Positions 21,333 through 53,176 of a DNA stretch of 64,000 nt are shown here, one piece after another. The stretch covers positions 9,891 to 73,890 of the forward strand of contig JAJYFB010000001.1 in NCBI GenBank assembly GCA_021785495.1. The letters run 5' to 3'. This DNA comes from Acidobacteriota bacterium. Lineage in GTDB: Bacteria; Acidobacteriota; Terriglobia; Terriglobales; Acidobacteriaceae. Position 1 is the first letter of the stretch; the number at the start of each line of letters is the position of its first letter. The notes beneath the pieces are model-generated. The model saw only the letters and a program-made list of their open reading frames with translations. It ran no database searches and was not told the DNA's origin. A program made the translations under genes and the position numbers.

Positions 21333-22490
21333 CTATTCCTGTTCGCCGAGGGCCAGACGCAATTGCTCCGACTCGTTCCAGGCAATCTTGAGTCCGCCTG
21401 AAACCAGGCCCCGGCCCATCAGCTGCACCATGGCGACGGCCCAACGAATCACGCGCGGCGATGCGCCATGCGGCCACAGCTCGCTTAACGGGCGGACGAC
21501 GCCATCGGCGCCGGGGTGGTAGACCCGCTCGTCCCAGTTGCGCGATCCCTGCGGAAACTCCGGGTAATAGCGCACGGCGTCGATGGCCGATTGCAGGATG
21601 CGGTGTTTCCACGGCTCGGCGTACTGCGGCATGAAGAGCACATGACTCTGTTTGTGCCGCCGCACCTCATGCACGAACTCGGTGAAGCTGGCCGCATGGG
21701 TCAGATTGATGTTGGCGTTCGGTTCCACGCCGTGGCGATCGCCGCCGGCCACCAGCAGCATGTTCCACTTTTCCGCCAGTCTCCGCACGGCGCGGTTCTC
21801 GTCCCAATGGCGCAGGCCGTTCAATTCGAGCGCGTGCAGAAAGGCTCCGTTCTTCTGCAGAAACTCGTTGACCAGGAACTGGTGCTTCTCCTTGCCGATC
21901 AGGTAGAGATCCCACATCGGGTGGTTGAAGACCACCAGAACATTCGGTTCGGCGTTAAGGGCCGAAAGAATCTCCGTGAGGCGCGCATCGCTGGGGTTGG
22001 CGGTGAACGCTTCGAGTGTGGCCATCCACTCGGTGGCCTTGGCGCTGGGCAGATTATGCACGCCCAGATGAAACGACTGCATGCCGCCGTAGGGAGCGCT
22101 CCACTCCACGGAAACCGGAATCTGCCGCGCGCTGGGGACCGTGCGCAGCAGCATGGGCGCTTTGATGTTGTCGTGGTCGCTCAGCGAGACCATGGCGTTG
22201 AGGCCGAGCTTTTCGATCTGGCGGGTTTCCAGGTCGAAGGCCAGCTTGGGCGTCATCGGCGGCGTCCAGTAGCTGGCCGCATAGTTGATGCGCACGCCAT
22301 GAACCTGCTCGGCCCGCCGCTCCAGGCGCGAAAGCAGGGGGCGCATGACCGGGAATTGATTGCCGAAGTTGGCCAGAAAATCCAGCGTTTCCGACGACTG
22401 GTTGGTGTGGCTGTGCAGCGAAACTCCGGTAGGAAACCCTCTTGGAGCGCCCGTATCGCGCCAGAGATACGAGATCGTGGATGCCGGCAT
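21333..22490 (-). CDS. PHP-domain-like metal-dependent phosphoesterase (hypothetical)
   Basis: A strong RBS (GGAGGAGGAGG) precedes ATG 22490. His/Asp motifs 'SLHSHTNQS','SLSDHDN','HLGVHN','GGDRHG' fit a PHP-type metal site. The assignment is by motif only. Confidence 0.5.
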   Translation of the reverse strand: MPASTISYLWRDTGAPRGFPTGVSLHSHTNQSSETLDFLANFGNQFPVMRPLLSRLERRAEQVHGVRINYAASYWTPPMTPKLAFDLETRQIEKLGLNAMVSLSDHDNIKAPMLLRTVPSARQIPVSVEWSAPYGGMQSFHLGVHNLPSAKATEWMATLEAFTANPSDARLTEILSALNAEPNVLVVFNHPMWDLYLIGKEKHQFLVNEFLQKNGAFLHALELNGLRHWDENRAVRRLAEKWNMLLVAGGDRHGVEPNANINLTHAASFTEFVHEVRRHKQSHVLFMPQYAEPWKHRILQSAIDAVRYYPEFPQGSRNWDERVYHPGADGVVRPLSELWPHGASPRVIRWAVAMVQLMGRGLVSGGLKIAWNESEQLRLALGEQE

Positions 22491-22750
22491 GATGACCTCC
22501 TCCTCCTTCTTCCTCCGCGCCCAGTTTCATTCTCAGTATCCCGCAAAAGGCGTGAATGCGGAGTTAAGGGCATGCGAATTGCCCTTCAATTGATGCAGCA
22601 CGAAAAACAAAAAATCATCGGAATTCCGGGAAAAATGGGGAAAAACCGAAAAATCCGAGGCCTGCCGGGGCTGCGACCGGCGGCGCACCCAAGGCACGCA
22701 GCCGTCCTGAAAGATAAGATGCGCCACCGGCCCGCACGTCGCAGCCGCGC

Positions 22751-26772: not shown

Positions 26773-29451
26773 TCAGGCCGGCTGCAACTCCTGCCGGGCC
26801 TCTGATTTTTCAGCCACCGGCCCATGCGTCTCGGCTGTCGGCGGGGGCGGCGCATCGCCGATGCGCTTCGAGTAGGCGCAGGCGACGGTTTTTTCCTCGG
26901 CCACAGGCGTCGTCTTCTTGCCGCGCTTCTTCGGAGCGGCGGCCTCTTCCTCCTCAGACCTCTTTTTGTTTGGGCATTCGAGGAAAATCCCCGAGCGGAG
27001 GGTCTTCTCGACCAGGTACGGACTGCCGCACTCGGGGCATTTCTGCGCCACCGGCTTCAGATTCGACGTAAAGTCGCACTTCGGATAGTTGGTGCAGCCC
27101 CAGAAGACATTGCCCCGTCGCGCTCTGCGCTCGGCAATGTCGCCTTCGCCGCACCGGGGGCACTTCATGCCTTCGATCAGGTTCTGCTTGACGTATTTGC
27201 ACTTGGGATAGCCGGAGCAGGAGACGAACTCGCCGTAGGCTCCCTGGCGCAGCACCAGCGGCTTGCCGCACTCCGGGCACGGCTCGCCGGTGGGCTCGGG
27301 CGGCTTCTGCTGCTGCTTCGAGCTGAGCTTGCGAAAGGTCTTGCAGGGCGGGTCGGCGTTATAGTCCGGGCAGGCCATGAACGGGCCGAAGATGCCCCGC
27401 CGCAGCACCATCACCTTGCCGCAGTTCTCGCAGTACTCCTCGGTGTCGCCGGCCTCCTGCGCCTCGGGCGTGTTCAGGTCGGGCTTGGCCGCGATGTTTT
27501 CCTTGGTGAACGTGCAGCTCGAAGGGTCTTTCTTGTTGTAGGCCGAGCAGGCGTAAAACGTGCCGAACTTGCCCCACTTCAACAGCAGCGGCGCGCCGCA
27601 GAGATCGCACTTTTCCCCCGTCTCCTGCTCCATCCGCTTGATGTTTTCCATCGTCTTGCCGGCGTCCTTGAGCTCGTCCTCGAAGTGGTCATAGAAAGCG
27701 TTCAGCAGATCGGTCCACTTCTCCGTGCCTTCTTCGATGTCGTCGAGTTCGGTTTCGAGCTTCGCCGTGTAGGCGGTGTCAAAAATGTACGGAAAGTTCT
27801 TCACCAGCAGATCGCAGACGACCACGCCGATCTCGGTCGGGTAAAAGCGCCCGCGCGAGCCGCCGTGCTTGACCACGTACTCGCGGTCCTGAATGGTGTT
27901 GATGATCGAAGCGTAGGTCGACGGGCGGCCAATGCCGCGCTCTTCGAGTTCTTTCACGAGCGAAGCCTCGTTGTAGCGCGGAGGCGGCTGCGTGGCGTGC
28001 TCTTCCGGGAAGAGCCGGTCCAGGCCGAGCGTCTTCACGCCGTCCAGGCTGGGCAGCCGGCTGGCCGACTCTTCGTCGTCCTTGCTGTCGTCCGAGGATT
28101 CGTAGAGCTTCAGGAAGCCGTCGAAGCGCAGGACCGATCCGCTGACGCGGAAATCGTAGGTTTTTCCGGTTTTGGCCGAGTGCGCGGCGATGTTCGCCGT
28201 CGTCACGTCGTAAACGGCCGGAACCATCTGCGAGGCCACGAAGCGCCGCCAGATCAGCGTGTAGAGCTTGAGCTGCTCATCGCTCAGGTAGCGGGCCAGC
28301 GACTCGGGCGTGCGCGCGGCATCGGTGGGGCGGATGGCCTCGTGCGCGTCCTGCGCCTCCTTCTTGCCTTTGTAGACATTCGGCGAACCGGGCAGATACT
28401 GCGCGCCCAGTTCCTTCGCGATCCACTCCCGCGCCGCCGTGACGGCTTCGGGCGCAACGCGCGGCGAATCGGTACGCATGTACGTAATCAGGCCCGTGGT
28501 GCCCTCGGCGCCGATCTCCACGCCCTCGTAGAGCCGCTGCGCCACGCCCATGGTGCGGCGCACGTTGAAACCCAGCTTGTTGGCGGCGTCGCGCTGCAAC
28601 TGGCTGGTGATGAACGGCGCCAGCGGCCGGCGCTGCTGCTCGCGCGCCTGCACGCTCGTGACCGTCCACGCGGCCTTTTCCAGAGCCGCGACGACCGCGT
28701 CCATCGACTTTTTGTCGGCGAGCGCGTTGGCGATGAACTGATCCTTGCCGTCCTTGTCCTTGCCGTTGGCCACGCGCGCCGGCGCGCCCTCGACGCCGAT
28801 GAACTTGGCCTTGAACTTCTGCTCCGCTTTTTTTTCCGGGTGAAGCTGGGCTTCGAGCGTCCAGTACTCCACCGGCTTGAAATCCCGAATCTCGCGCTCG
28901 CGCTCGACGATCAGCCGCACGGCCACGGTTTGCACGCGGCCGGCCGAAAGCCCCCGGCGCACCTTGTCCCAGAGCAGCGGCGAGATCTGATAGCCCACCA
29001 GCCGGTCCAGAACGCGGCGCGTCTGCTGCGCATCCACCAGATGCTGATCGATGTCGCGCGCGTGTTTGAAGGCCTCGTTGACGGCCTTCTTCGTGATCTC
29101 GTTGAAGGTGACGCGGCGAATTTTTTTCTTCTCTTTGGGCGAGGTTCCCAATTGCAGCGCCAGATGGTAGGCAATGGCCTCGCCTTCGCGGTCCGGGTCA
29201 GGCGCGAGATAGATTTCATCGGCCTTGGCCGCGGCTTTCTTCAACTGATCGACGACCTTTTCCTTGCCCGGCGAGACGATCAGATGCGGCTCGAAGGTGC
29301 GCTTCTTCAGCTCCACGCCCAGATCGTTCTTGGGCAGGTCCATAATATGCCCCACCGAGGCCCGCACATCGAAGCCCTTGCCAAGATACTTCTCGATCGT
29401 CTTGGCCTTGGCTGGCGACTCGACGATCACCAATGCTTTGCTGGTTGCCAT
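26773..29451 (-). CDS. topA: DNA topoisomerase I with multiple C-terminal zinc ribbons
   Basis: ATG at 29451 gives 'MATSKALVIVESPAKAKTIEKYLGKGFDVRASVGHIMDLP' and 'ITYMRTDS'. Repeated 'C..CG....LR.G.FG.F..C..YP.C' fingers follow. The track N-terminal extension to 29778 is Arg-rich and unlikely. Confidence 0.95.
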   Translation of the reverse strand: MATSKALVIVESPAKAKTIEKYLGKGFDVRASVGHIMDLPKNDLGVELKKRTFEPHLIVSPGKEKVVDQLKKAAAKADEIYLAPDPDREGEAIAYHLALQLGTSPKEKKKIRRVTFNEITKKAVNEAFKHARDIDQHLVDAQQTRRVLDRLVGYQISPLLWDKVRRGLSAGRVQTVAVRLIVEREREIRDFKPVEYWTLEAQLHPEKKAEQKFKAKFIGVEGAPARVANGKDKDGKDQFIANALADKKSMDAVVAALEKAAWTVTSVQAREQQRRPLAPFITSQLQRDAANKLGFNVRRTMGVAQRLYEGVEIGAEGTTGLITYMRTDSPRVAPEAVTAAREWIAKELGAQYLPGSPNVYKGKKEAQDAHEAIRPTDAARTPESLARYLSDEQLKLYTLIWRRFVASQMVPAVYDVTTANIAAHSAKTGKTYDFRVSGSVLRFDGFLKLYESSDDSKDDEESASRLPSLDGVKTLGLDRLFPEEHATQPPPRYNEASLVKELEERGIGRPSTYASIINTIQDREYVVKHGGSRGRFYPTEIGVVVCDLLVKNFPYIFDTAYTAKLETELDDIEEGTEKWTDLLNAFYDHFEDELKDAGKTMENIKRMEQETGEKCDLCGAPLLLKWGKFGTFYACSAYNKKDPSSCTFTKENIAAKPDLNTPEAQEAGDTEEYCENCGKVMVLRRGIFGPFMACPDYNADPPCKTFRKLSSKQQQKPPEPTGEPCPECGKPLVLRQGAYGEFVSCSGYPKCKYVKQNLIEGMKCPRCGEGDIAERRARRGNVFWGCTNYPKCDFTSNLKPVAQKCPECGSPYLVEKTLRSGIFLECPNKKRSEEEEAAAPKKRGKKTTPVAEEKTVACAYSKRIGDAPPPPTAETHGPVAEKSEARQELQPA

Positions 29452-30001
29452 TCCCGAATCGGTTCTCTCTTTCTCTTCCTGCCTGTTGCCGCCGCGAACC
29501 CCGGTTTCCCTGTGCCGCCGGTCCGCGCCTCTGCGTCGCAGCCGCGCTTTCCCTTTGGACTCGGCCCCGGCGCTTCCGTTTCGCCTGCTCGGGAGTCGAG
29601 TGCGGCGTGCGGCCGGTCCGTTCGCCGCGGAGTTTCCTTCAACGGCCGATCCGCGCCCCTTCCGGTTGTTCCTGGAATGTGGACTTTTGGCGCCCGGTCT
29701 CGAAAACCCCGAAAAAAGGGCCCGCAAGGGTTGAACCCTACCACGGAATACCATCTCATTTCTACCCGATGAACGCAATTTTCGTTGGGAATTGTCCCAT
29801 TTTCGAGGCGAAAAGACCTGTTTCTCCGCGAAAAAATCATGCGAATTCTTCGATTTAAGCCATTACCACAGATTGAAAAAAATAAAACCCGGCGTTTCCT
29901 TCGTCCCGGCTGCACCGGTCCTCGCCGTTTCATCCATCGCCCGGCAGGGCGCATCGAAGGCAGGGCAAGCACGGCGCAAATCGTCTGCGTCGGGTCAAGA
30001 C

Positions 30002-30742
30002 TCAGAGCAGGCCGCCATCGACGGCAATCACTTGCCCCGTAATATAACTCGCCTGCGGCGAGGCGAGGAACGCCACGAGCGGCGCAATCTCCTCGGGCCG
30101 GCCAAAGCGGCCGAGTGGAATCTCGGCCAGCAGGCGCTTTTCCTCTTTTTCGATGAACCGGGCCGACATGGGGCTGGGCACCACGCCGGGGCAGACGGCG
30201 TTGACGCGCACGTTGAAGCGGCCGGTCTCGCGGGCCAGAGCTTTGGTCAGCGCGATCAGGCCGCCCTTGGCGGCTGCGTAGTTGCACTGGCCGGCCTGAC
30301 CGCGCACGCCGCTGGGCGAGACGATGTTGCAGATGCTGCCGCCGCCCGCGCGCATCATGCCGATCACGGCCTGCTTCGAGCAGAGATAGGCGGCGCGAAG
30401 GTTCGTGTCGACAACCTCATCCCACTGCGCGTCGCTCATCAGCGCCAGCAGGGCGTCGCGATGGATGCCCGCGTTGTTGACCAGGCAAGCGACGGGGCCG
30501 AGCCGCGCCTCGACCTCGGCAAAGAGCGGGGCCACCAGGTTGCGGCCGGAGAGGTCGGCGCCGACGGCGATGGCTTCGCGCGCCGCCGCGCGAATGCTCT
30601 CGGCGACTGCCGCGGCGCCGGCCTCGTTCCGGTGGTAGTGAACCGCCACGCGATAGCCGCCGCGGCCGAGCGCACGGGCAATCTCGCTTCCCAGCGTACC
30701 CGACCCGCCGGTGACCAGCGCGATTTTCTTCTCTGCCGTCAT
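30002..30742 (-). CDS. Short-chain dehydrogenase/reductase, FabG-like 3-oxoacyl reductase
   Basis: '[20 protein letters not shown]','LVNNAGI','[18 protein letters not shown]','[11 protein letters not shown]'. ATG at 30742. Confidence 0.9.
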
Positions 30743-30868
30743 GCCTGCTCCTGGTTTGAAAATGCTTGTGTTCGCGAGCCTCGGCTGCGCATGGAGCCGC
30801 TCCCGTGGCGGCGAACGCCTCATTTGCTGGAATCTTCGCAGCGAGGGGAGTTTTTCATCGAGCGCCGG

Positions 30869-32392
30869 CTATCGAACGCTGGCCGCGGCCTGCAGGCTCT
30901 CGATGCGCGTCAGCTCTTCGGGGTCGCGCAGCCGCGCCCCTGCGTTGTAGCTGCAAAACGGAATCAGCTCGCCGTCGGTGGAGACGTACTGAATGATGCA
31001 GCGATGCAGCCGGCGCAGGTTGTAGCTGTGCGCGTCCATAAAGTGCATTCCGGCGACGAAGATACCGTTGAAGCCGCGCCGGTCCCAGCCCTCGGAGCGG
31101 CCGTCGGTCTTGTCCTCCCAGGCGTCGAGGCTGCGGATCAGCCGCTCGAAGGTGAGTCCGGGCGGAGTTTTCGACCGGTCGAGGCAGCTTGCGAAGCGGC
31201 CGAACTGGCGGATCTTCGAGATCTGCCGCCCGATCAATCCTTGCTCAGCCACGGGCTTTACCTGCGCCATTCCGCGCAGAAAACCGTCCAGGTCGAAAAA
31301 ATTGCTCAGGCAGAAGGGCCGGTTGTCGTCGTCGATATAAAAAAACGTTCCGATGGAGCAGTGCGCGTCGCAGAGCGGCGGGTGAACGCGCTCGTCGCGC
31401 ACCCGCTCGATGGCCCGGCTCAGCAGCGAGAGCGCGTTGAGCGGGAACCAATCGTCGGGAAAGCGCGTCAGCCCGGTCTGCTGGCCGAACTCGCGCGCCA
31501 TGGCGGCCAGGTTGAAGGGCTCGGCGTTCTGCTCATCGACGCCGATGCGGCCGACGTGCGCCGCCGGCTGGATGCTGATTCCGGTGACAAAGCGGCTGTG
31601 CTCCAGCGCGAAGCGGAAGATGGGCCCCAGTTGATCGACGTTGACGCCGCCGATCACGGTGGGCACCAGCACCAGCCGCATGTTCGTCTGCTCGACGGCG
31701 CGCACGGCGGCGATTTTCTTGTCGAGCAGCCGCTGTCCGCGCATCTTCAAATAGACTTCGTCGCTCAGGCCGTCGAATTGCAGGTAGAGCGTATGCAGAC
31801 CGGCCTCTTCGCAGAGCTTGGCGTAGCCGGGGTCGGCAAACTTGCTGCCGTTGGTCGCCACCTGAAGGTGCGTAAAGCCCATCTCGCGCGTCATGCGGAG
31901 AATGGCCGGAAACTCGGGGTGAAGGGTGGGCTCGCCGCCGGAAAATTGCACGCTGCGGCAGGGAACGGGCCGGTCCAGCAGCGCCTGAAGCATCTTGCGT
32001 AGGGTCGCAAGATCGAGCGCGTAATGGCTGCCTTCGCCCGTCGCTTCGGCAAAGCAGACCGGGCAGCGAAAGTTGCAGCGGTTGGTGATGTCGATGACCG
32101 CCAGGCAGGGCTCGTTGGCGCTCTTCATCGCCTGCGCGCGGCAGCCGTTCCCACCCGGCATCGCGGCGGTCTCGGCGCCGGGAAAGACGAGCCGGTTCCA
32201 CGCGTCGAGCTTGCGATAGAGGGCGGAGTCGGAGAAGATCAGATCCGTGGTTGGCTCGTGGCAGCCGCATTCGCAGCGCTGATAGACCTTGCCATTGTGA
32301 TCGAAGATCGCCGCCGCGCACGGCGCTCCGCAGCGCGGGCACAAGGACGCGACCCGATCGATGTGCATATCTCCCGCTGCGGATTCGGACAT
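30869..32392 (-). CDS. Radical SAM enzyme with an N-terminal Cys-rich ribbon (COG1964-type, possibly Tes/GDGT-MAS-like)
   Basis: 'CPRCGAPCAAAIFDHNGKVYQRCECGCH' is followed by the rSAM motif 'ITNRCNFRCPVCFA','FSGGEPTLHPEF','ATNG'. The protein is 507 aa. RBS GAAGAGG precedes ATG 32392. Radical SAM membership is secure. The Tes-like subfamily call is from memory only. Confidence 0.85.
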   Translation of the reverse strand: MSESAAGDMHIDRVASLCPRCGAPCAAAIFDHNGKVYQRCECGCHEPTTDLIFSDSALYRKLDAWNRLVFPGAETAAMPGGNGCRAQAMKSANEPCLAVIDITNRCNFRCPVCFAEATGEGSHYALDLATLRKMLQALLDRPVPCRSVQFSGGEPTLHPEFPAILRMTREMGFTHLQVATNGSKFADPGYAKLCEEAGLHTLYLQFDGLSDEVYLKMRGQRLLDKKIAAVRAVEQTNMRLVLVPTVIGGVNVDQLGPIFRFALEHSRFVTGISIQPAAHVGRIGVDEQNAEPFNLAAMAREFGQQTGLTRFPDDWFPLNALSLLSRAIERVRDERVHPPLCDAHCSIGTFFYIDDDNRPFCLSNFFDLDGFLRGMAQVKPVAEQGLIGRQISKIRQFGRFASCLDRSKTPPGLTFERLIRSLDAWEDKTDGRSEGWDRRGFNGIFVAGMHFMDAHSYNLRRLHRCIIQYVSTDGELIPFCSYNAGARLRDPEELTRIESLQAAASVR

Positions 32393-32693
32393 AACCTCTT
32401 CAACTCAGTTCCAAAGTTTGTCGAAAGTATACACCTTGCGCCGTTCTGTATTTTGCGTCGCCGCCGGGAAAGCAGGGCGATCGCATGGATCGCTTTTTGT
32501 TTGCATCGCGGGATCGCCGCGCCCCGCCGGGGCGCGAACGGTTCTTCTCCGCGTTGTCCCAGGGTTCCGCTGCGCTCTACCCTGGGCTATTTTCGCCTGT
32601 CCCTACGGAAGGCAACCGGGGGACAGATCAAACGCGGAGTTCATTGCGTGCGTTGGCTTCGTTCCTGCGTTTGCCCTGGCCGGGAAAGACTTT

Positions 32694-35252
32694 CTACGCG
32701 CGCGTGATTCCGGCGGGCGGGCATCTTTTCCTTGCGCCTTCCTGAAGGTGCAGAAGGGCGGGAATCAGCCAGAAGCCTCCGGCCAGCGTCAGCGCCACGC
32801 CGATCGAGGTGACCAGTCCCAGCTCGGCGAGCGGTTGGAAGGACGCGGTCATCAGCGCGCCGAAACCGACGATGGTGGTGAGGTTGGACTGGATCAGCGC
32901 GGCCCCGGAGGCTTTGGCCACGTCGAGAATGCGGTTTCGCTCGCTTTCAAGAGAACGGCGCACTAAGTGAATCCCGTTGTCGATGCCGATGCCGACGATG
33001 AGCGGCAGCGCGGTGACGGCCATGATGCTGAAGCGGTGACCGGCCAGGATCAGCAGTCCAAAGGTGACCACAAGGGCAAAAATGATTGGTAGAAGAACGA
33101 GCAAAGCCGTGGAAAAACGGCGAAAGGTCAGCAGCAAAATCAAAAAAATGGCTGCTGCGGTCCATGCGAGCGCGCGGCGGCTGTCGTGCGCGACGCGCGA
33201 TTGCAGATCCCGGTCGATCTTGTTGAACGAGAAATCGACGAAGGGACCGTACTGCGCGCGCCACTGCCTGAGCACAGAGACGGGAATCGCCTCGGTCGCA
33301 TCGGGACGGGCAGGGTAGTAGGCGACGGCGGCGACGTAGCCGCCATCCGGCGCACGACGAATGCTGTTGGCCATCAGATCGGCGGGCAGATACGCACCGG
33401 AATCTTCGAGCGTGAGCGGCTGCGCGCCCTGGCGCAAGGCGTGAAGACGCGCAAAGTAACCGGCGTACGGCGCAAGGCGAAATCCGTTTTCCGCGAGAGC
33501 ACCCTTGAGCGCGCGCGCCGTGGCCTCCAGATCAACGCCTTTCAGCAAGGCTGCGCGCCGCCGCTGGGTCGCGATGGAAGGCAGCAACTGCGTCGGCGAA
33601 AAGACCGACTGGACCACGCCCTCTTGCCGGTAGTTCTCAAGCGCCGCGGTGAGCTGCTCGGCGCGCCGCAAAACCTCCTGTTCGTTGCCGGCGATCAGCA
33701 GCACATCCGGGCTGCCCGCGATGCCAAACTTCGATGCCAGCAGGTTCTGCGCGGCGAGGGCGGGCGAGTTTACGCCGCTCTCCACGACGAAATTTCCGCC
33801 CCAGCGGATCGAGGGCAGCAGGCCGAGCGAGAGCAGAAACAAGGCTGCGGCGGCGATCGCGACAGCGCGGGCATGGCGGCCGACAAAATCCACCGTCGCG
33901 CGCGCCACGCCGGGCAGAAAACGGAAGGTGATCGCACGGGGCGCGAGCGGCTGGATGTATCGCCCCCACAGTTGCATCAGCGCGGGCACGGTCAGCAGCG
34001 TATGCAGGCCGGTCATGAAGATGCCCACGGTGAGAATGAAGCCGAACTCGGCGAGCGCCTTGAAGCCGGAGCAGGCCAGCGCGGCCGTCGAAGTGGCCGC
34101 GGTCAGGATGCAGAGCACGATGCTCGTTCCCGTGGTCTCGAAGGTGCGCAGCATGGCCTCGTTGAAGCTGCCGCCCTCCGCCCACTCCTGCGGCGAGCGG
34201 TTGAAAAAATGCACCACCTGATCGTCGCCGAGACCCGCCAGAATGGCGATGAACGAGAGGCTGATGAGATTGACTTCGCCGGGATAGTAGCTGGCGATTC
34301 CGGTCGTCCACAGAATGCCCAGGCCCGTGGGCAGAAGCGACAGGAGCACGATCTGAACGTTGGGATAGACGGCGAGGCACAAGAGCAGGCTGCCAACGAT
34401 CGAGACCATCGAGACGCGGCGAATGTTCTTCTCGATGAAGAGATGGTCTTCCTCGGAGTAGGCGTAGGCTCCGGCGGCAACGGCGCGGATGCCGGCCGCG
34501 CGCATCTCCGCGCCAGAGGTGGCGCTGGCGATGTGCTGCCGTGTCCATTGCATGACCTGCGTGGCGTCGCGATAGTCGACGGCGGGCTGGCGCGGCTCGG
34601 CCAGAATCAGCAGCGCCGTGTGGTCCTTGCTGAAGAAGCGGTTGCCTGAGCCCCAGTTGAAATCGAAGCTGCCGAACTGGCCGAGGCCCACGGCGTGGCC
34701 GGCCGTCGCCGAGGCCACGCCCAGCGGGTCGGCCACAAAGTCGCCCGCGCCCAGCGTCGAAAAGGGCGTGACCAGTTCGGTCGCGGCGGCGCGCACGTGG
34801 GCGGGAATCTGCCGGGGATCGAGCCGGTCGCGCAGCGCCGCGAGGTTCGCGGCGTCCGCAAAGGCCGGGAAGTTCCAGGAAAAAAGCCGGACCATGCCGA
34901 GCAATTCCGCTTCCGAAAGCCCCGATCGCTCCGACCGGAAGAGCCCGCTCGCGGTCATCTCCGCGGTCAATCGATCGGCCGTCTGCTCCATCGGCCCGCT
35001 GCAATCCGCGCAGCCTTTGGGCGCCAGCACCAGCACGTAAAGCTGATTGCCGTAGCCCAGTTCGTTGCCGATCCGGCTCACCGCGCGCCACTGCGGATCG
35101 TTCGTTCCGAACATTCCCGTCAGATCGGTTCCCGTGCGCAATGTGTGGATGTGCGCGTAGAGAACAAGCGTCATGATCGCCACCGCGGACGCAACCCATC
35201 CCGGCCGACGGATCACCAGATGCGCAAGCAGCCGCGTGAAACGGGCCATCAT
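32694..35252 (-). CDS. MMPL/HpnN-like RND-superfamily lipid exporter
   Basis: 852 aa in two 6-TM bundles with large loops. Motifs 'FIAILAGLGDDQVVHFFNR' and 'LPLIVGIGIDNGIHLVRR'. Its start overlaps the upstream stop (ATGA at 35249-35252). Confidence 0.85.
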   Translation of the reverse strand: MMARFTRLLAHLVIRRPGWVASAVAIMTLVLYAHIHTLRTGTDLTGMFGTNDPQWRAVSRIGNELGYGNQLYVLVLAPKGCADCSGPMEQTADRLTAEMTASGLFRSERSGLSEAELLGMVRLFSWNFPAFADAANLAALRDRLDPRQIPAHVRAAATELVTPFSTLGAGDFVADPLGVASATAGHAVGLGQFGSFDFNWGSGNRFFSKDHTALLILAEPRQPAVDYRDATQVMQWTRQHIASATSGAEMRAAGIRAVAAGAYAYSEEDHLFIEKNIRRVSMVSIVGSLLLCLAVYPNVQIVLLSLLPTGLGILWTTGIASYYPGEVNLISLSFIAILAGLGDDQVVHFFNRSPQEWAEGGSFNEAMLRTFETTGTSIVLCILTAATSTAALACSGFKALAEFGFILTVGIFMTGLHTLLTVPALMQLWGRYIQPLAPRAITFRFLPGVARATVDFVGRHARAVAIAAAALFLLSLGLLPSIRWGGNFVVESGVNSPALAAQNLLASKFGIAGSPDVLLIAGNEQEVLRRAEQLTAALENYRQEGVVQSVFSPTQLLPSIATQRRRAALLKGVDLEATARALKGALAENGFRLAPYAGYFARLHALRQGAQPLTLEDSGAYLPADLMANSIRRAPDGGYVAAVAYYPARPDATEAIPVSVLRQWRAQYGPFVDFSFNKIDRDLQSRVAHDSRRALAWTAAAIFLILLLTFRRFSTALLVLLPIIFALVVTFGLLILAGHRFSIMAVTALPLIVGIGIDNGIHLVRRSLESERNRILDVAKASGAALIQSNLTTIVGFGALMTASFQPLAELGLVTSIGVALTLAGGFWLIPALLHLQEGARKRCPPAGITRA

Positions 35253-36373
35253 GGCGCACGCTCCAGCGGCGGCCGCTCGGCGACAAAGAGAATATGCGCC
35301 AGCGGGAGAAGGTTGCGAAATCGCCGCGTGCGCACGCGCATGCCGGCCGCTTCAAGCGCCTCGCGGTAGGCCGCGGACGCAAGCACCAGCGGGCGCGACG
35401 GCGCGTTGCCGATGCGGAAGATCAGCCGGTCGAAGAGCATGGTCATGGCCGAGCGCAGGCCGCGCTCGCGATCGTGCACGCGAAAGACGAATTTTCCGCC
35501 CGGCTCCAAAGCAGCGCAGCAGCGGCCGATAAGCGCCAACTGCTCTTCGGCGCTCAGGTACTGCAAGACATCGAGAATCAGGATCAGGCCGGCCGGAGGC
35601 AGCGGGTACCGCCGCACGTCGCCCACCTCGACTTTGGCGTCGCAGCCGGCCAGCGCCTTTTGCGCCACGCCGATGCGTTTGGCATCCAGATCGCAGCCGG
35701 CCAACGGTCGGCCTTCCTGGCCGAAGGCGGCAAAGCACAGCGCCATTCCGTAGCCGCAGCCGAGATCGACCACCGCGCCCGCGCCCAGTCCTTCGGCGTC
35801 GAGGAGCGCAAAAATCCGGTCCAGCCGCATCTTCCAGCGCACAAAGCCGCGGTCGAAGTTCGGCGCGGAGGCAAAGACGCCATTCACAAAGCGGATGCGC
35901 GCGCGCAGATTGCGGCGGCAGGGCCGCAGCCACGCGACGGCGATGGCCGCGATCGCTCCGCCCGCCACTCCCGCAGCCGCGCCCAGAGGCACGCTGCCGA
36001 TCGCCCACAGCAGCAGGTCGCCGCGCGCTGCGGCCATCGTGAAACCCGAAAGGCGCAACGGCAGAAAGGCGCCCGTGCGCAGCACGCTGCCGCACTCGAT
36101 CGAACCGAGGACAAGAAAGGGCTGCAAAAACGGATTATTGATGAACGTGGCGGCGAAGGTGAGCGGTTTGTTCAGCCCCAGCAGAATCGCCAGACCGATG
36201 GCGGCCACCGATTGCAAGCCGTAGATCGGCACCACGCCGATGAAGAGGCCGAGGCCGACGGCCAGACCGGCCGGAAGCGGCTCCAGTCCCTCCGTGCAGA
36301 GCGTCGCCGCCAATTTTTTGATGGTCCCGTTGATGGCTTTCATCCTCGTCCGATCCGCCCTGCGCGCCGCCAT
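35249..36373 (-). CDS. DUF2062-like membrane domain fused to a class I SAM-dependent methyltransferase
   Basis: The N-terminus 'GLAVGLGLFIGVVPIYGLQSVAAIGLAILLGLNKPLTFAATFINNP' is DUF2062-like. The C-terminus carries 'VVDLGCGYGMAL' (SAM motif I) and 'ILILDVLQYL'. Confidence 0.75.
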   Translation of the reverse strand: MAARRADRTRMKAINGTIKKLAATLCTEGLEPLPAGLAVGLGLFIGVVPIYGLQSVAAIGLAILLGLNKPLTFAATFINNPFLQPFLVLGSIECGSVLRTGAFLPLRLSGFTMAAARGDLLLWAIGSVPLGAAAGVAGGAIAAIAVAWLRPCRRNLRARIRFVNGVFASAPNFDRGFVRWKMRLDRIFALLDAEGLGAGAVVDLGCGYGMALCFAAFGQEGRPLAGCDLDAKRIGVAQKALAGCDAKVEVGDVRRYPLPPAGLILILDVLQYLSAEEQLALIGRCCAALEPGGKFVFRVHDRERGLRSAMTMLFDRLIFRIGNAPSRPLVLASAAYREALEAAGMRVRTRRFRNLLPLAHILFVAERPPLERAP

Positions 36374-36379
36374 CCCGCG

Positions 36380-36796
36380 TTAACCCCAGGCGACCGACAG
36401 CTCGCCGCTGGCCACCTTTTCTCCGTTCACGGTGATCGTTCCCTCAATGTATGCCATCGATGCCGCCTGCGTCAGCTTTCTGGTCTCGATGCGCAGACGC
36501 TCGCCCGGCGTCACCGGCCGCAGAAACTTGAAGCGGTTGACGGCGGCCAGCAAGGCCCGTTCCGGCGGACCACCCTCGCCCAGCATCACGCCAGCCGTCT
36601 GCGCCACAGCCTCGATCATCAGCACGCCGGGCAGAACGGGACGGCCAGGAAAGTGCCCGGCAAAGATGGGGTTCGCCGCATCGGCCGTGAGCGAGGCCAC
36701 GCAACGCTCGCCAGCCTCCAGTTCTTCCACGCGATCGATCCACAGGAACGGCGGTCGGTGCGGAATGCGCTTCTCGATCTCTTCGCGCTCCATCAT
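36380..36796 (-). CDS. FabZ/FabA-like hot-dog fold 3-hydroxyacyl dehydratase
   Basis: 'IPHRPPFLWIDRVEELEAGERCVA...FAGHFPGRPVLPGVLMIEAVAQTAG'. Confidence 0.8.
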   Translation of the reverse strand: MMEREEIEKRIPHRPPFLWIDRVEELEAGERCVASLTADAANPIFAGHFPGRPVLPGVLMIEAVAQTAGVMLGEGGPPERALLAAVNRFKFLRPVTPGERLRIETRKLTQAASMAYIEGTITVNGEKVASGELSVAWG

Positions 36797-37428
36797 TTCT
36801 TTTTTTCCTCGAAGATTCCCTCGGGCAGCTTGCGGTTGTCGGACGAAATCTCGATGGCGAAGAGGCTGTTGACGCCGCTTCTTCCATCCACTTCGATCGA
36901 CCGGGGAAGAAACGTCCGCTTGTCGAGCTGGACGACCAGCAGATTCAGCCGCCTGCGATAGATCGCGGCGCGAGGAACAAAGCGCAGTTCGTACCCGCTC
37001 GCGTGTTCCGTGGCTGTAATGGCAAAGTCCCTCCTGAGCCCATCGAGCGAGCTGGCGCGGCTGAATGCGGACTGAGCGCGCCGCACATCGCCGCCGATCC
37101 TGAGCGCTTCCGTCGCGCCATCGCCGCCCGTCACGTTCAGGTCGTCCGTGTCGAAGCGCACCGTCAGCGCGTGCGGAGGCAGATACTCCAGCCAGAAGCG
37201 GACCGCGCCCTCGGCGCAGAACCTTCCGCGCAGCACAATGGGCCGGGTCATCAGCGGTGAAGTGCGGCTCTCAACCACGCTTCCGCACGCCGTCTGCGTA
37301 CGCGCCTCGGCCTGCTGCACGCCGTTCCAGATGCGCGTCAGCAATTCGTCCTGCTGGGCGCCGAGCGCCACCGGCAGAGCGATCCACGCCACCACGGCCA
37401 ACCCCGCCCGCCCTTTGAATCGCGTCAT
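36793..37428 (-). CDS. LolA-like outer-membrane lipoprotein carrier / lipid-binding periplasmic protein
   Basis: Signal peptide 'AGLAVVAWIALPVALGAQQ'. The size (~210 aa) and position match the LolA-like member of aryl-polyene/flexirubin-type clusters. Sequence motifs are weak. An ATGA overlap sits at 36793-36796. Confidence 0.55.
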   Translation of the reverse strand: MTRFKGRAGLAVVAWIALPVALGAQQDELLTRIWNGVQQAEARTQTACGSVVESRTSPLMTRPIVLRGRFCAEGAVRFWLEYLPPHALTVRFDTDDLNVTGGDGATEALRIGGDVRRAQSAFSRASSLDGLRRDFAITATEHASGYELRFVPRAAIYRRRLNLLVVQLDKRTFLPRSIEVDGRSGVNSLFAIEISSDNRKLPEGIFEEKKK

Positions 37429-37432
37429 CTTC

Positions 37433-38107
37433 TCACGCTCCCAGAAAGCGAAAGGCCAGCGAGCAGAAGCAAATCCGCACCGTATCGCGCACGGGCTTCA
37501 TCTTCGAGCGCGGCTGCCGGCCGTCGTAAATTGTCTGCACGGGCGCATGGGCAATCGTCGCCCCGCTTCGCGCCATCTTGATCAAGGCTTCCATCTCGAC
37601 CTCGTAACGCCTGCTGCGCAGTTCGATCCGGCGGAGCTGATCCAGCCGATAGACGCGGAAGCCGCTCTGGCTGTCGCCAATCCGGCAGCCCACCAGCGCC
37701 GAGGCCCAGCGGCTGCCCACCGTGTTCGAGTAATACCGCGCTGGCGGCATCCTTGCGCGGTCGAACGTGCGCGCGCCAATGACCAGGCCGGCTCCGGTCT
37801 CCTGCGCCACGCCGAGCAGTCCGGCAATATCTTCCGGCCGGTGCTGGCCATCGCCATCGAGCGTCACGGCGTGCGTGAACCCGGCGTCGATCGCGTAGCG
37901 CATTCCCAGGCGCAACGCCGCGCCCTTGCCGCTGTTCTTTTCGCTGCGCAGACAGAATGCGCCGGCCGCGCCGGCCAACTCGGCCGTGCCGTCCGTCGAG
38001 CCGTCGTCGATCACGACCACTGCGTCCACATGCGCGCGCGCGCCGCGCACCACGGCGGCGATGTGGACAGCCTCGTTATAGGCCGGAATCAAGGCGCAGC
38101 TCTTCAT
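37433..38107 (-). CDS. Family 2 glycosyltransferase (Dpm1/polyprenol-phosphate sugar transferase-like)
   Basis: ATG at 38107 gives 'MKSCALIPAYNEAVHIAAVV..VVVIDDGSTDGT'. 'LDGDGQHRPEDI' follows. Confidence 0.85.
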   Translation of the reverse strand: MKSCALIPAYNEAVHIAAVVRGARAHVDAVVVIDDGSTDGTAELAGAAGAFCLRSEKNSGKGAALRLGMRYAIDAGFTHAVTLDGDGQHRPEDIAGLLGVAQETGAGLVIGARTFDRARMPPARYYSNTVGSRWASALVGCRIGDSQSGFRVYRLDQLRRIELRSRRYEVEMEALIKMARSGATIAHAPVQTIYDGRQPRSKMKPVRDTVRICFCSLAFRFLGA

Positions 38108-38883
38108 GATCGCTCGGCTTCTTCGCGCGCGCCCGCCAGCGCGAAGGAAAAGCCGCGCGCGCGCAGGCTGTCGATCACGCCGGGCAGCGCCCGCAGCATG
38201 GGCTGAGCCCCCTCCGATCGCCGGTCGTGCAGCAGGATGATGTCGCCGCCCTGCGCCCGGTTCACGATCCGCTTCTCCAGTTCTTCGGCATTGCGAATGC
38301 GCGTGTCCAGGCTGCGCAGCCGCCACGAGACGAACTCCAGTCCCGCCCGCTTCAGCGCGGGCCGCAAAAACGGATGGCGCAGTCCCACCGGAGAGCGGAA
38401 GTAGCGCGGCCGCTGGCCGCAGGCGCGCCGGATGGCCTCCGTGCCGCGTTCAATCTCCCGGCGCAGCCGCCACGGCGGCAAAAAACAGAACAGCGGACGG
38501 TGCGACCAGGTGTGATTGCCGATCAGATGGCCTTCCTCCCAGGCGCGGCGCACAATCTCTGGATGCGCCTCGGCGCGGCGGCCGACGACGAAGAACGTCG
38601 CCCGCACACCTTTTTCGCGCAACAGATCCAGCAGCCGCGGCGTATCCGCAGGGTCGGGCCCGTCGTCGAAGGTCAACGCCACCGCGCGCGTGTTGTCCAG
38701 GCGCGAACGGTTCTCCACCAGCCAGCCATTCGCCGGGTGGAAGAGCAGAAAAAGCATGGTTCCCGTGCCCAGCCCGTACAGAACGGCAAAAAGAACCAGG
38801 CGCGGCCAGGAAAACGGAAAAAGCACCGCCAGCGCACAGTGGGTCGCCGCAAAAAGACCGAGAAATAGATACCCCCGCGCCAT
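38104..38883 (-). CDS. Polysaccharide deacetylase (CE4/NodB family) with two N-terminal TM helices
   Basis: ATG at 38883 (MARGYLFLGLFAATH). Motifs 'ALTFDDGPDPADTPRLLDLLREKGVRATFFVVG','GNHTWSH','ILLHD'. The 544-aa track ORF is an artefactual extension across a MITE. Confidence 0.85.
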   Translation of the reverse strand: MARGYLFLGLFAATHCALAVLFPFSWPRLVLFAVLYGLGTGTMLFLLFHPANGWLVENRSRLDNTRAVALTFDDGPDPADTPRLLDLLREKGVRATFFVVGRRAEAHPEIVRRAWEEGHLIGNHTWSHRPLFCFLPPWRLRREIERGTEAIRRACGQRPRYFRSPVGLRHPFLRPALKRAGLEFVSWRLRSLDTRIRNAEELEKRIVNRAQGGDIILLHDRRSEGAQPMLRALPGVIDSLRARGFSFALAGAREEAERS

Positions 38884-39191: not shown

Positions 39192-39646
39192 CCGTTGCTA
39201 CCGCATTGCCGGCATGAAACGTCCATAAAAGCACCGCAGACAGGCAGGATGGAAGGCACATGCAGCATTCACCGATCCGGACCGTACGAATTTCCGCACC
39301 ACGCCCCGTTCTGCTTCCAGCCCCTGGCGGCCGGAGGACAGGATCAAGGATTGCGGCCCGCCGGCGCGATCCAGCCGGTCCGGGAACGGCCGCGGTCGTC
39401 CCCGCCTCCGCCACGGGCTTCCTGCCAGACGCAAGCCCGCCCTGATACACTTTTTCCTTGGAGTTACCTTGTGCGCTTCGCCTCTGCGGCTGCGCGCGGT
39501 TGTCCGCCGCGGCGGCATCCGGGGGTTCGTGCCGGTCCGCTTCCAGCCTGCGGGCGCGGAACAGGATCAAAGTTGGCGATGGGCGCCTTTTTAACCAGTT
39601 TTTTGTGACCGCTCCGCAGTTCGACGGTACGGAGCGGGGAGGATTC

Positions 39647-42364
39647 ATGCGGCGGTTCTTGACGCTTGTTTGCTTGTTTGTCCTGGCTCTTCCGGCTGGG
39701 GTCTCCATCTCCGGATGCACGCGCAACCCGGCGGGCAATTACTGCAACGGCCTCGGCTACGGTCTGAAGGACACCGACGTCGATTACATCACCTTGCAGC
39801 CGCAGATCGGCGGCATCTCGCTGGCCTACGGGCAAATCGCGAGCGTACAGTCGCCCACTGCCTATACCTGCAAGGGCAACTCAACCGCCGCCCCGGGTGG
39901 AAAATTCAACTACGGCACCACAAACAATCAGTTGGTGGATATTTCGCCCACGGGAAGACTTTGCGCCGGCACCTGGAACCGCAACACCGGCGGCGGCATC
40001 GCCGACTACACCTACTGCTACGCACCCAGTCCGCTGCCAGCTACCGGGGGACTTCCCTACGCCATCGCCTATATCACGGCCACGACCGCCGCGGTAACCT
40101 CCAACCCTGTCCCCGTCTACGTCCACGCGCCGATCACCTCCATCAGCCTGGCCACGACGCCGCTCGATACCTCGTCCTCGCAATCCTGCTTCTCGCAGAA
40201 CCAGCAGGCGAGCCTGGATGCGTTGGCCTACTACGACAACAACGGTACGGAATCCCTGCTCTGTCAGCCGTCCTCGAACGCGCCGGTCACCGGCTTTTCC
40301 GTCAATAACAATGTTGTGACCCTGAACGCCGCCAACAACTTTGTGGCCGGCGAGATGGTCACCTTCTCCGGCTTGTCCGCCGCCACCTTTTTGAACGGGA
40401 AAACCTGGACCGTCCTCTCGAACGGCCTGAGCAACACGCAGTTCGAGGTGGCCGCCAATGCCGCCAATGCCAGCCAGACGGCCGACAACGGCGCCGCAGC
40501 CACCTCCAGCGCGCTGCCCACCTGCGGCAATTCCATCGGCACCCTCAGCTTCGCCAGCAGCAATTCCTCGATCGCCAACATCAACCCGGCCACGCTCACC
40601 GATCCGCTCTCCACCATCACCGCGCTGATGCCGGGAACCACGACCATCACCGCGACCATCTCCCAGTCCGCATCCTCGGCTGGCTACTTCTCCACCTGCC
40701 CGCCGGCCGCCATCAAGGTCGCGCTGGCCAATGGGTCCACCAGCGGCGTGATCACGCAGGGCGTGACGCAAAACCTGACCACGACCGTCACCGACACCCT
40801 GGGCAAGCCCATCACCGGACTGGATCTCACCTACGAGTCCACCAATCCCATCGAGGTGGCTGCCACGGCCGGCGGAGCCATCACCACCGCCTATCCCGGC
40901 CTCGCCTCGGTCTATGCGGTCTGCGAACCGCCCGGCTGCAATCCCGCGCCCATCAATGTTTACGGATTGAACGGCACCGGCCTGTCGCTGGCTTCCAATC
41001 CCGTCGACATTACCGTCCCCGGCACGACCAGCGATTTTGTCTACTTCGCGGCGCCCGGCCTGTCGCGCTACTTCAGCAGCATGCAGTTGCTTACGGGCAA
41101 TCCCGGCGGAACCACCCTTCTGCCCTACGTCCCCAACTCCCTGGTCATGGACCAGCAGGGCGCCAACCTCTATTTCGGTTCGCTTCGCGAGTTGATGATT
41201 TACTCAACCTCGGCCGACGCCATCACACGGCAAGACGCATCCGTGCCCGGCGTTGTGCTGGCCGCCTCGCCGAACGCCAGCCAGTTGCTCATCAACGACC
41301 AGGTGCGCGGCCTGTTCTACATCTACAACACCGCGGGCAGCATCGCCACCACCTACAGCGGCATGGGCTCGTCGGCGGCATGGACGCCCGATTCGCAGAC
41401 CCTCTACATTGCCGACAGCTCCTCGCTGGGCGGAAACCACACCAACACGCTTTACGTCTATAACGCCAACGTCGGCTGGAGCACCTACACACTGACGAAT
41501 CCAACCAGCGCTTCCGTCGGGCGTAACCTGGCCATTACCGTTCCGGGCGTGGGCGCCTACCTCACGGGCAATCCGACCGTGGACCATACCTGGTGTCCAT
41601 CGGGCAATGTCGGCAACAACGGCAGCATCCTCTTCTATCCCCAATCGGCCTCCGACGTGCTGAACCTCCAGACCGATGTGATTGGGGCTACGCTGGACGG
41701 CAAGCACATGCTCGGCGCAGCGCTCAGCGGCTCGAACATCACGCTCAACGACATCGCCGTGGATATTTCCGCCGCGCCGCTCTGCCCGGTGGATACCGCG
41801 GTTTCGCCGCAAACCATGTCGCCGCTCTCGACCAACCCCTCGATCAATGGAACGGTCACGCTCGGCACGCAGACCGGCGCGAAAACCTTCGCCGCCGCCC
41901 AGGTCAATCAGGTTGTCACCGGTACGGCTCCGGCCACGGCAACCGTGACTACGGCCGCCCCCATTGCTTTTGTCACTTACAACGGCGATACGGCGGGCAA
42001 CCAGCTTCCCTACTATCTGCCGCAATCCTCCGGGCTGGGGCAGGTTGGCTACGTCACCTTTGCCGACGCCAACTCGACCACTGCGCCGCCTACCGCGCCT
42101 CTGACCGGCGCGTTTTCGCCCGATCACTCGCTGTTTTTCGTCTCGACTGCGGGCGACAACGATTTTCACTTCATCAGCATTCCCGACAACGTGAGCACAA
42201 CGGCGCCGCCCACCGACTCGCAGCAGTACAGCCCCAATCTGCCCGCCTGCACTCCGGTCTCGGCGGGAGGCAACGACGCCGACTGCCTCTATCCCACCGC
42301 GCCGACCGCAACCACCTACGTCCCCGCCACGGTGATCGTCGTCAAACCCCGCTCGATCACGTAA
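39647..42364 (+). CDS. Large (905 aa) Thr/Ser/Asn/Gly-rich surface lipoprotein, unknown function
   Basis: GGGGAGGA precedes ATG 39647. 'MRRFLTLVCLFVLALPAGVSISGC' carries a lipobox. The rest is compositionally beta-rich, with Ig-like/propeller-like stretches. I recognise no family. Confidence 0.7.
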   Translation: MRRFLTLVCLFVLALPAGVSISGCTRNPAGNYCNGLGYGLKDTDVDYITLQPQIGGISLAYGQIASVQSPTAYTCKGNSTAAPGGKFNYGTTNNQLVDISPTGRLCAGTWNRNTGGGIADYTYCYAPSPLPATGGLPYAIAYITATTAAVTSNPVPVYVHAPITSISLATTPLDTSSSQSCFSQNQQASLDALAYYDNNGTESLLCQPSSNAPVTGFSVNNNVVTLNAANNFVAGEMVTFSGLSAATFLNGKTWTVLSNGLSNTQFEVAANAANASQTADNGAAATSSALPTCGNSIGTLSFASSNSSIANINPATLTDPLSTITALMPGTTTITATISQSASSAGYFSTCPPAAIKVALANGSTSGVITQGVTQNLTTTVTDTLGKPITGLDLTYESTNPIEVAATAGGAITTAYPGLASVYAVCEPPGCNPAPINVYGLNGTGLSLASNPVDITVPGTTSDFVYFAAPGLSRYFSSMQLLTGNPGGTTLLPYVPNSLVMDQQGANLYFGSLRELMIYSTSADAITRQDASVPGVVLAASPNASQLLINDQVRGLFYIYNTAGSIATTYSGMGSSAAWTPDSQTLYIADSSSLGGNHTNTLYVYNANVGWSTYTLTNPTSASVGRNLAITVPGVGAYLTGNPTVDHTWCPSGNVGNNGSILFYPQSASDVLNLQTDVIGATLDGKHMLGAALSGSNITLNDIAVDISAAPLCPVDTAVSPQTMSPLSTNPSINGTVTLGTQTGAKTFAAAQVNQVVTGTAPATATVTTAAPIAFVTYNGDTAGNQLPYYLPQSSGLGQVGYVTFADANSTTAPPTAPLTGAFSPDHSLFFVSTAGDNDFHFISIPDNVSTTAPPTDSQQYSPNLPACTPVSAGGNDADCLYPTAPTATTYVPATVIVVKPRSIT

Positions 42365-51811: not shown

Positions 51812-51985
51812 CGCCACTTGCAAAATTCAATTGATGCTCGCAGGATGGAATAGGACAGGGACTTGAGAGGCCGCGTAATGATCCGGCAGACCGGGTTTTG
51901 CGACAGCGGCACGGCTTGAGACGGGCCAGAAAGCCAGGCAAATCCTTGGGATTTTAGCCCCTGTTTCCACAGGTTTTGCCGGTTT
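51812..51985. repeat. Degenerate MITE family-2-like element upstream of cydB
   Basis: The left end 'gccacttgcaaaattc' matches the family-2 TIR exactly. An internal 'ttagcccctg' is shared with copy 46236. The right end 'aggttttgccggt' only weakly matches the TIR. Confidence 0.4.
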
Positions 51986-52135
51986 TGCGCGTCTTGCGTG
52001 GTTTTCCCGCAGCCTCTCTGGCCGCGCCCTGACGCTTCGCGCCTTACGGCACAAGTTTGTCGAGGCGCTGACCGGGCACGCTTCTTGCTTGGCCGATTGC
52101 AGGCGGGTTTGGCTCTGGAAGGGAGTTCGACGAGG

Positions 52136-53176
<1,041 letters not shown>

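Follow-up and report, generated by a model that had tools for sequence, protein, structure and literature searches.

Positions 30002-38883 of a 64,000-nucleotide stretch of acidobacterial DNA (Terriglobales, Acidobacteriaceae; contig JAJYFB010000001.1; the whole 64-kb stretch is called the window here) carry eight intact open reading frames (ORFs) on the minus strand, in the order CE4 deacetylase, GT2 glycosyltransferase, LolA-like carrier, FabZ-like dehydratase, DUF2062-methyltransferase fusion, MMPL exporter, radical S-adenosylmethionine (SAM) enzyme and FabG-like short-chain dehydrogenase/reductase (SDR). Judged by sequence comparison, this locus appears to belong, in reduced form, to a cluster family not yet characterised, in which a lipid system of the flexirubin/aryl-polyene type is joined to a new clade of the tetraether lipid synthase (Tes) family of radical SAM enzymes. 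On balance, it seems probable that the eight genes make up one functional neighbourhood of two transcription units, being a trimmed and probably split copy of a lipid cluster conserved in Terriglobia. Temperature and pH proxies in worldwide use are based on branched tetraethers and iso-diabolic acid lipids, how Acidobacteria make these lipids has yet to be solved, and the cluster family described here bears on how bacteria make membrane-spanning lipids.

An earlier description of the window, made from its letters alone (hereafter the original prediction), had proposed eight tightly packed minus-strand genes with three ATGA stop/start overlaps and a 300-bp gap, and this layout is borne out. The overlaps are read directly in the sequence at 38104-38107, 36793-36796 and 35249-35252; the GT2 and LolA-like genes are separated by 4 nt, and the FabZ-like and DUF2062-methyltransferase genes by 6 nt, or by 36 nt if the later start of other gene callers is correct. 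The larger gap, between the MMPL and radical SAM genes, measures 301 nt (32393-32693). The start of the SDR gene lies most likely at 30742 (246 aa, MTAEKK...) and not at 30823, which places it 126 nt behind the radical SAM gene. GC content is 0.64-0.67 across the eight genes, the same as in the remaining window, all eight frames are marked as coding by high third-position GC, and catalytic motifs are present in the intact ORFs. Every domain call of the original prediction was likewise confirmed, by Pfam and NCBIfam profile searches or, for the LolA-like protein, by AlphaFold2 and Foldseek.

The radical SAM enzyme (507 aa, 30869-32392) is a member of the Tes/GDGT-MAS family, in a bacterial group designated clade A. 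The NCBIfam Tes model (NF045702) is its best family by 75 bits, at 2e-103 and 346.4 bits against an equivalog cutoff of 450, and the protein aligns end to end with the GDGT-MAS structure 7tol_A (phmmer E 6.8e-82; query residues 13-488 against chain residues 24-498). The label "COG1964-type radical SAM" given to it previously was thus right as to the radical SAM fold and missed the homology to Tes. Pfam assigns it Radical_SAM and Zn_ribbon_HMPTM domains, the latter at 28 bits (above 27). Metal sites were compared in an alignment of 85 family members, with the site description of Lloyd et al. (PMC9433317) as the guide. The rubredoxin-like site C18/C21/C42/H45 (CX2C...CX2H) of the window enzyme aligns to C9/C12/C33/H36, and the CX3CX2C motif of the radical SAM cluster (C106/C110/C113), the three C-terminal cysteines C345/C465/C480 and the methionine of GMHFMD are kept in both clade A and the archaeal sequences, this methionine being assigned from the alignment as the likely equivalent of Met439. 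The C-terminal [4Fe-4S] cluster of GDGT-MAS, with three cysteines and a labile methionine as ligands, is the catalytic one that forms a carbon-sulfur intermediate (PMC9433317). An annotation as methanopterin methylase (HMPTM), formerly attached to MJ0619, was considered and dropped, as it found no corroboration in the work of Lloyd et al., who reassigned that enzyme (PMC9433317).

Compared with the archaeal Tes/GDGT-MAS enzymes (MJ0619, PDB 7TOL/7TOM; Zeng et al. 2022, PMC8941075; Lloyd et al. 2022, PMC9433317), the window enzyme therefore shares full-length homology and most of the metal ligands. It differs in its bacterial origin, in lacking the N-terminal auxiliary cluster, in scoring under the equivalog cutoff, in its phylogenetic position and in being encoded within a fatty-acid/polyketide-type cluster instead of an isoprenoid context. 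In a neighbour-joining tree it falls in the monophyletic clade A, sister to the archaeal Tes enzymes plus a bacterial clade B (approximately 40% identical to the window enzyme), with a clade C (approximately 30% identical) outside. A 2026 review describes radical SAM lipid modification as tied almost entirely to isoprenoid lipids (PMC13459092).

For clade A, the gene neighbourhood is highly conserved. A scan of 185,579 species genomes gave at least five clade-A loci (L001-L005) among the matches listed, and contig look-ups added L081-L085 and L089-L093, for a sample of 15 loci. In all 15 the radical SAM gene is followed by a gene for a protein of approximately 990 aa, with a signal peptide and weak LolA_like/DUF5686 matches, and then by the SDR gene in every locus long enough to show it (L004 ends short). 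Directly upstream of the radical SAM gene, the six-gene module running from CE4 to MMPL is present in L001-L004, L083, L085 and L089-L092; in L081 it is partly visible on the downstream side, and on the short contig L093 only the MMPL gene can be seen. Co-occurrence of the radical SAM/SDR pair with the six upstream genes, on which the original prediction depended, is hence found in related genomes.

The chain-building half of the system becomes visible in the longer loci. In L005, L081/L082 and L085 the radical SAM unit is contiguous with a set of genes for a lipid A-type acyltransferase (LPLAT), ketosynthase (KS), chain-length factor (CLF) and KASIII, and a fragmented version is present in L084. 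Where the contigs extend far enough, L005, L081/L082 and L085 also carry an adenylating enzyme, a small carrier protein and an acyl carrier protein (ACP), and these contiguous loci contain one to three B12 radical SAM enzymes. In L003 such a set is convergently oriented 3 kb beyond the SDR gene. From these gene contents, the full cluster appears to be a flexirubin/aryl-polyene-type type II fatty-acid/polyketide system. Its predicted core comprises the adenylating enzyme with a small carrier protein, KASIII, KS, CLF, ACP and the lipid A-type acyltransferase. To this core have apparently been added the Tes-family enzyme, the ~990-aa secreted protein with its LolA-like domain, one to four B12 radical SAM enzymes and the CE4-to-MMPL module. 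The view that a radical SAM enzyme stands in place of the chain-building genes did not survive this comparison, since L005, L081/L082, L084 and L085 combine both. Because the radical SAM/SDR unit of the relatives is contiguous with the LPLAT-KS-CLF-KASIII set, the window is best seen as derived from a chain-building cluster by reduction or splitting.

In the Terracidiphilus-like subclade, a divergent B12 radical SAM gene is located upstream of CE4, and most loci of sufficient length have an acyl-CoA-dehydrogenase-like gene. Two of them, L083 (1-3260) and L004 (approximately 446-2800), carry beside the cluster a PlsA/Ger-like ether-lipid enzyme (BcrAD_BadFG plus DUF2229, 1141 aa) together with the acyl-CoA-dehydrogenase-like gene and an HpnR-like B12 radical SAM gene. 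Four tandem paralogous lipoproteins of approximately 245 aa are encoded behind the SDR in L002 (15520-19641), and the same protein family (p251) occurs inside the L081 cluster.

Outside clade A, association of Tes homologues with such genes is rare. Among the matches listed, none of the 26 clade-B loci and, apart from L051, none of the 39 clade-C loci have flexirubin-type neighbours, the ~990-aa gene or a linked SDR. The exception, L051 (1-11410), encodes a Tes homologue that diverges at the base of clade C and shares 32% identity with the window enzyme, beside GT2 (47% identical), LPLAT, DUF2062-methyltransferase, FabZ-like and AMP-ligase genes. Given this neighbourhood, the link between the Tes family and the lipid module may be older than clade A. 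Two Tes-family paralogues are located 3-5.5 kb apart in the clade-B loci L013, L016, L026 and L040 and in the planctomycete locus L037.

Bacterial Tes homologues have been proposed for the synthesis of glycerol dialkyl glycerol tetraethers of the branched type (brGDGTs) since 2022, with candidates from Ca. Solibacter usitatus, Ca. Koribacter versatilis and Edaphobacter aggregans (PMC8941075, PMC10087280). These proteins are of the same family and phylum as the window enzyme, and all are candidates for the coupling of non-isoprenoid tails. They were reported as approximately 40% (40-42%) identical to archaeal Tes, and their gene neighbourhoods were not described (PMC8941075, PMC10087280); from that identity we infer that the Solibacter and Koribacter proteins belong to clade B. 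A proposed functional analogue, compared here by description only, is Mss of Thermotoga and Thermoanaerobacter, a radical SAM enzyme that links two fatty acyl tails to give diabolic acids (Sahonero-Canavesi et al. 2022, PMC13159169). Mss was reported to be absent from Acidobacteria, and Tes homologues to occur in only 3 of 14 iso-diabolic-acid producers (PMC13159169).

The first gene of the six-gene module (38104-38883) encodes a NodB-type CE4 deacetylase of 259 aa (Pfam Polysacc_deac_1, 2e-36) in which the motifs TFDDGP, HTWSH and RSPVG are visible; a hydrophobic segment at residues 4-49 supports two N-terminal transmembrane (TM) helices, an ArnD-like NCBIfam match is weak, and the protein is conserved in 11 related loci. 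The adjoining GT2 glycosyltransferase (224 aa, 37433-38107; Glycos_transf_2, 3e-20) is of the polyprenyl-phosphate sugar synthase type (PpgS/AglJ/ArnC-like), its matches to PpgS (1e-26) and AglJ (8e-27) both being far under the cutoffs. The juxtaposition of such a glycosyltransferase with a membrane CE4 deacylase resembles the ArnC/ArnD and PpgS modules. The MMPL/RND protein (852 aa, 32694-35252; Pfam MMPL, 2e-29 in two stretches) has two TM bundles and is a putative inner-membrane lipid exporter resembling the hopanoid exporter HpnN (3e-55) and HAE3 (4e-49), again under both cutoffs; a tblastn search of plasmids with this protein gave no match. Unlike genuine members of the ArnC/ArnD, PpgS and HpnN families, all of these window proteins thus fall far short of the family thresholds. 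The DUF2062-methyltransferase (374 aa, or 364 aa in other gene calls; 35249-36373) is a fusion of a membrane DUF2062 domain (3e-15) to a class I SAM methyltransferase (Methyltransf_25/11/23), with hydrophobic segments at 30-74 and 120-150, and the same fusion is found in every related locus that carries the six-gene module.

The third gene of the module (36793-37428) encodes a 211-aa protein that has no Pfam match itself and gave no match in a profile search of PDB sequences. An AlphaFold2 model built from a 26-sequence alignment reached a pLDDT of 77.4, and the alignment was needed for this, as the single-sequence model gave a pLDDT of 36 only. In a Foldseek search of the PDB with the alignment-based model, the top 30 matches were all LolA (E 8e-10 to 4e-7, TM-score 0.5-0.75) and came from at least eight species, with RseB and LolB further down the list. 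Three of eight homologues have weak LolA/LolA_3 Pfam matches, and homologues are named LolA by JGI and NCBI. A signal peptide is indicated by hydrophobicity at residues 6-24, with no lipobox. The protein is accordingly modelled as a secreted protein with the LolA fold, an open beta-barrel with a helical lid, and as a putative periplasmic lipid carrier.

Two fatty-acid-type enzymes complete the set. The FabZ-like 3-hydroxyacyl-ACP dehydratase (138 aa, 36380-36796; Pfam FabA, 8e-24) scores 124 bits against NCBIfam FabZ (NF000582), above the cutoff of 113, and carries the HFPGRPVLPGVLMIE motif, and its homologues in relatives have precomputed ApeP/ApeI matches at E <= 1e-5. The FabG-like 3-oxoacyl-ACP reductase (246 aa, 30002-30742, in an ORF open back to 30823; Pfam adh_short_C2, 4e-56, and KR, 4e-15) scores 245 bits against NCBIfam FabG (NF009466), above its cutoff of 222.

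As to known systems, published flexirubin clusters list KS, CLF, polysaccharide deacetylase, LolA, dehydratase, DUF2062, MMPL/methyltransferase, lipid A-type acyltransferase, FabG and an AMP-binding enzyme. The likeness that the original prediction saw to the back end of aryl-polyene and flexirubin clusters agrees with these lists and extends to CE4 and DUF2062: compared with the clusters of Bacteroidota and Proteobacteria, the tailoring and export set in the window is complete and adjacent. In contrast, KS, CLF, the AMP-binding enzyme, two carrier proteins and the lipid A-type acyltransferase have counterparts in the relatives only. Literature on aryl-polyene, tetraether and radical SAM systems in Acidobacteria yielded no paper describing this gene combination, in agreement with the earlier statement that it is uncharacterised.

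Given this likeness, the locus might be an ordinary aryl-polyene/flexirubin pigment cluster with its KS/ACP half elsewhere, the radical SAM enzyme being a minor accessory or an unrelated neighbour. The back-end gene set and the presence of KS/CLF, an adenylating enzyme, two carrier proteins and LPLAT in the relatives fit such an identity, yet we regard it as unlikely. Conservation is highest for a core of Tes-like enzyme, ~990-aa protein and SDR (15 of 15 loci), and B12 radical SAM enzymes recur in the cluster; compared with the flexirubin/aryl-polyene clusters, the Tes-like, ~990-aa and B12 radical SAM proteins are additions. The adenylating enzyme of the relatives is of the amino-acid type, passing TIGR01733 (340 bits, cutoff 317) and not an aryl-acid ligase model, and neither an ammonia lyase nor another aryl-starter gene appears among the Pfam labels of the related loci, although no search was aimed at ammonia lyase. 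The models for the pigment pathways themselves remain under threshold in the window: the FabZ-like protein scores 25.5 bits for ApeI-like (gathering score 28.5) and 20.2 bits for ApeP-like (27), and the SDR scores 222 bits for the flexirubin protein FlxB (cutoff 340). With these values, the locus is not classed as an aryl-polyene or flexirubin cluster.

The absence of KS, CLF, ACP, adenylating enzyme and LPLAT anywhere in the 64-kb window, as originally stated, invites a different explanation, namely stand-alone remodelling, in which the eight genes couple, decorate and deliver ordinary (e.g. iso-branched) housekeeping lipids with no need for a dedicated KS or ACP. The closest relatives (L001, L002, L004, L083 and L089-L092) likewise show no KS set within 10 kb, purifying selection acts on all eight genes in spite of the losses, and Tes itself works on finished membrane lipids and binds ester-linked phospholipid (PMC9433317, PMC13274423). 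This explanation is a serious possibility, albeit one to which we give clearly less weight than to a derivative of a chain-building cluster, and the modification of an existing membrane lipid suggested by the original prediction is not evident. The ancestral and deeper-branching arrangement is contiguous with the full chain-building set, L003 of the same subclade retains its set nearby, and it is not obvious what a FabG-like reductase and a FabZ-like dehydratase, both dedicated, would do to a finished lipid. Being dedicated and under purifying selection, these two enzymes would be expected to work on ACP-bound elongation intermediates. Their retention argues that an ACP-based chain-building partner persists, either as the missing half of the cluster elsewhere in the genome or as the housekeeping synthase.

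The reduction of the window goes further: besides every chain-building gene, the ~990-aa gene and the divergent B12 radical SAM gene are missing. A relocated ~990-aa gene within the window (the 968-aa or 647-aa proteins of no known family being the candidates) was considered and dropped, as tblastn of the whole 64 kb gave no match better than E 3.8. In a collection of 5.8 billion proteins, the four closest homologues were 76-81% identical to the ~990-aa protein of L001, occupied the canonical position and came from sister species, the next ones were at most 61% identical, and no relocated copy could be assigned to the window species. The order radical SAM-SDR-topA is identical in three other assemblies, one of which is the NCBI metagenome-assembled genome GCA_027342665.1; with one layout in four assemblies, the reduced arrangement is not an assembly error. 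A possible displaced member is a 397-aa protein of no family encoded at 21333-22526 on the minus strand, 27-32% identical to a gene product of approximately 350 aa that follows the SDR in L005, L081 and L085; it also shares 63% identity with a protein encoded in L080, 9 kb away from a Tes homologue of clade C.

That genes kept by every relative are missing here could also mean that the locus is a decaying, non-functional remnant from which the chain-building half has been deleted together with the genes for the ~990-aa protein and the B12 radical SAM enzyme. This seems very improbable. Ratios of nonsynonymous to synonymous substitution rates (dN/dS) against L002 are 0.11-0.25 for all eight genes, indicating purifying selection, and are similar to the 0.09-0.16 of the L002/L003 pair. 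Against L001 they are 0.11-0.23 for the five genes intact there, the L001 values for GT2, CE4 and methyltransferase being inflated by frameshifts in that assembly. The eight ORFs with their catalytic motifs are intact, their translational coupling is preserved and their arrangement is the same in four assemblies, and the remaining genes do not appear to be decaying.

Several of the observations above nevertheless weigh against reading the locus as a trimmed and probably split copy of the conserved lipid cluster. The N-terminal auxiliary [4Fe-4S] motif (C73/C77/C80/His) is missing in the window enzyme. This CPxxCGxCxxH motif is missing in all 11 clade-A sequences compared (the window and 10 relatives) and in clade C, and is retained in archaeal, planctomycete and clade-B sequences. 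Together with the Tes score under the equivalog cutoff, its absence means that the reaction of the enzyme may differ from tail coupling. Likewise, the ~990-aa protein and the B12 radical SAM enzyme, kept by every relative, are lost here, and this lineage may therefore follow a pathway different from the full one. Within 30 kb on one side and 25 kb on the other there is no chain-building gene, no carrier protein and no acyltransferase, and the sub-threshold ApeI-like, ApeP-like and FlxB scores count on the same side.

Returning to the trimmed and probably split cluster as the preferred reading, its working can be proposed as follows. The FabG-like SDR and the FabZ-like dehydratase would process beta-keto and beta-hydroxy acyl-ACP intermediates. 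The GT2 enzyme would put an N-acetyl-hexosamine on a lipid acceptor, and the membrane-anchored CE4 enzyme would deacetylate it, by the logic of ArnC/ArnD or PpgS, while the DUF2062-methyltransferase might methylate the product at the membrane. The Tes-like enzyme would then couple unactivated terminal carbons of acyl tails by a carbon-carbon bond, giving a macrocyclic or membrane-spanning lipid; its substrate would be the glycolipid made by the cluster, prior to export to the outer membrane. Transfer of the lipid towards the outer membrane could be the task of the MMPL pump and of the LolA-fold carrier in the periplasm; at the outer membrane, in the relatives the ~990-aa protein would receive it.

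A more specific proposal is that the clade-A cluster is a dedicated acidobacterial route in which non-isoprenoid acyl chains are built, coupled tail to tail into membrane-spanning lipids of the diabolic-acid or brGDGT type, given an amino-sugar headgroup and exported to the outer membrane. This remains rather doubtful at present. If true, it would be the first pathway for membrane-spanning lipids to be defined genetically in Acidobacteria, and the trimmed version in the window would reveal which genes are dispensable. In many Terriglobia from peat and soil, genes for fatty-acid/polyketide-type chain building, headgroups and outer-membrane export are physically linked to a separate clade of the Tes family. 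The contiguous L085 or L081 layout offers a compact, clonable candidate pathway, and the window provides a natural reduced variant for asking whether Tes-type coupling works on non-isoprenoid bacterial lipids.

The 301-nt gap that separates the radical SAM/SDR unit from the six-gene module is probably an internal promoter or regulatory region, and a gap of approximately 200-300 nt is present at the equivalent MMPL/radical SAM junction in relatives. No Rfam family was detected at E <= 1 between 29 and 40 kb, and within the gap neither a sigma-70 consensus nor a minus-strand terminator was found, the scans being no better than shuffles; there is thus no recognisable riboswitch or promoter in it. 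In alignments with relatives only the last ~45 nt are conserved, and only with the closest relative L001. At 32393-32440 (minus strand), and in L001 upstream of 10001, GTGTATACTT ... CTGAGTTGAAGG stand just before the radical SAM start codon, in these two loci only.

The cluster is bounded downstream of the SDR by the topoisomerase I gene topA (26773-29778). A divergent gene upstream of CE4 (39458-42364, plus strand) takes the position that a B12 radical SAM gene has in sister loci and is followed by Dus; it encodes a 968-aa putative lipoprotein rich in Ser, Thr and Gly, with the lipobox ISGC and without a match in Pfam or NCBIfam. Housekeeping genes such as those for ClpXP, trigger factor, AcrB, ClpB, cytochrome bd, ProRS and Obg occupy the remaining part of the window. 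Another radical SAM gene, at 53251-54582 (minus strand), was rejected as a member of the system, being an unrelated TIGR04053 SPASM protein (486 bits, above 395; AhbD/NirJ-like), and it adjoins the gene for cytochrome bd subunit II (51920-53176).

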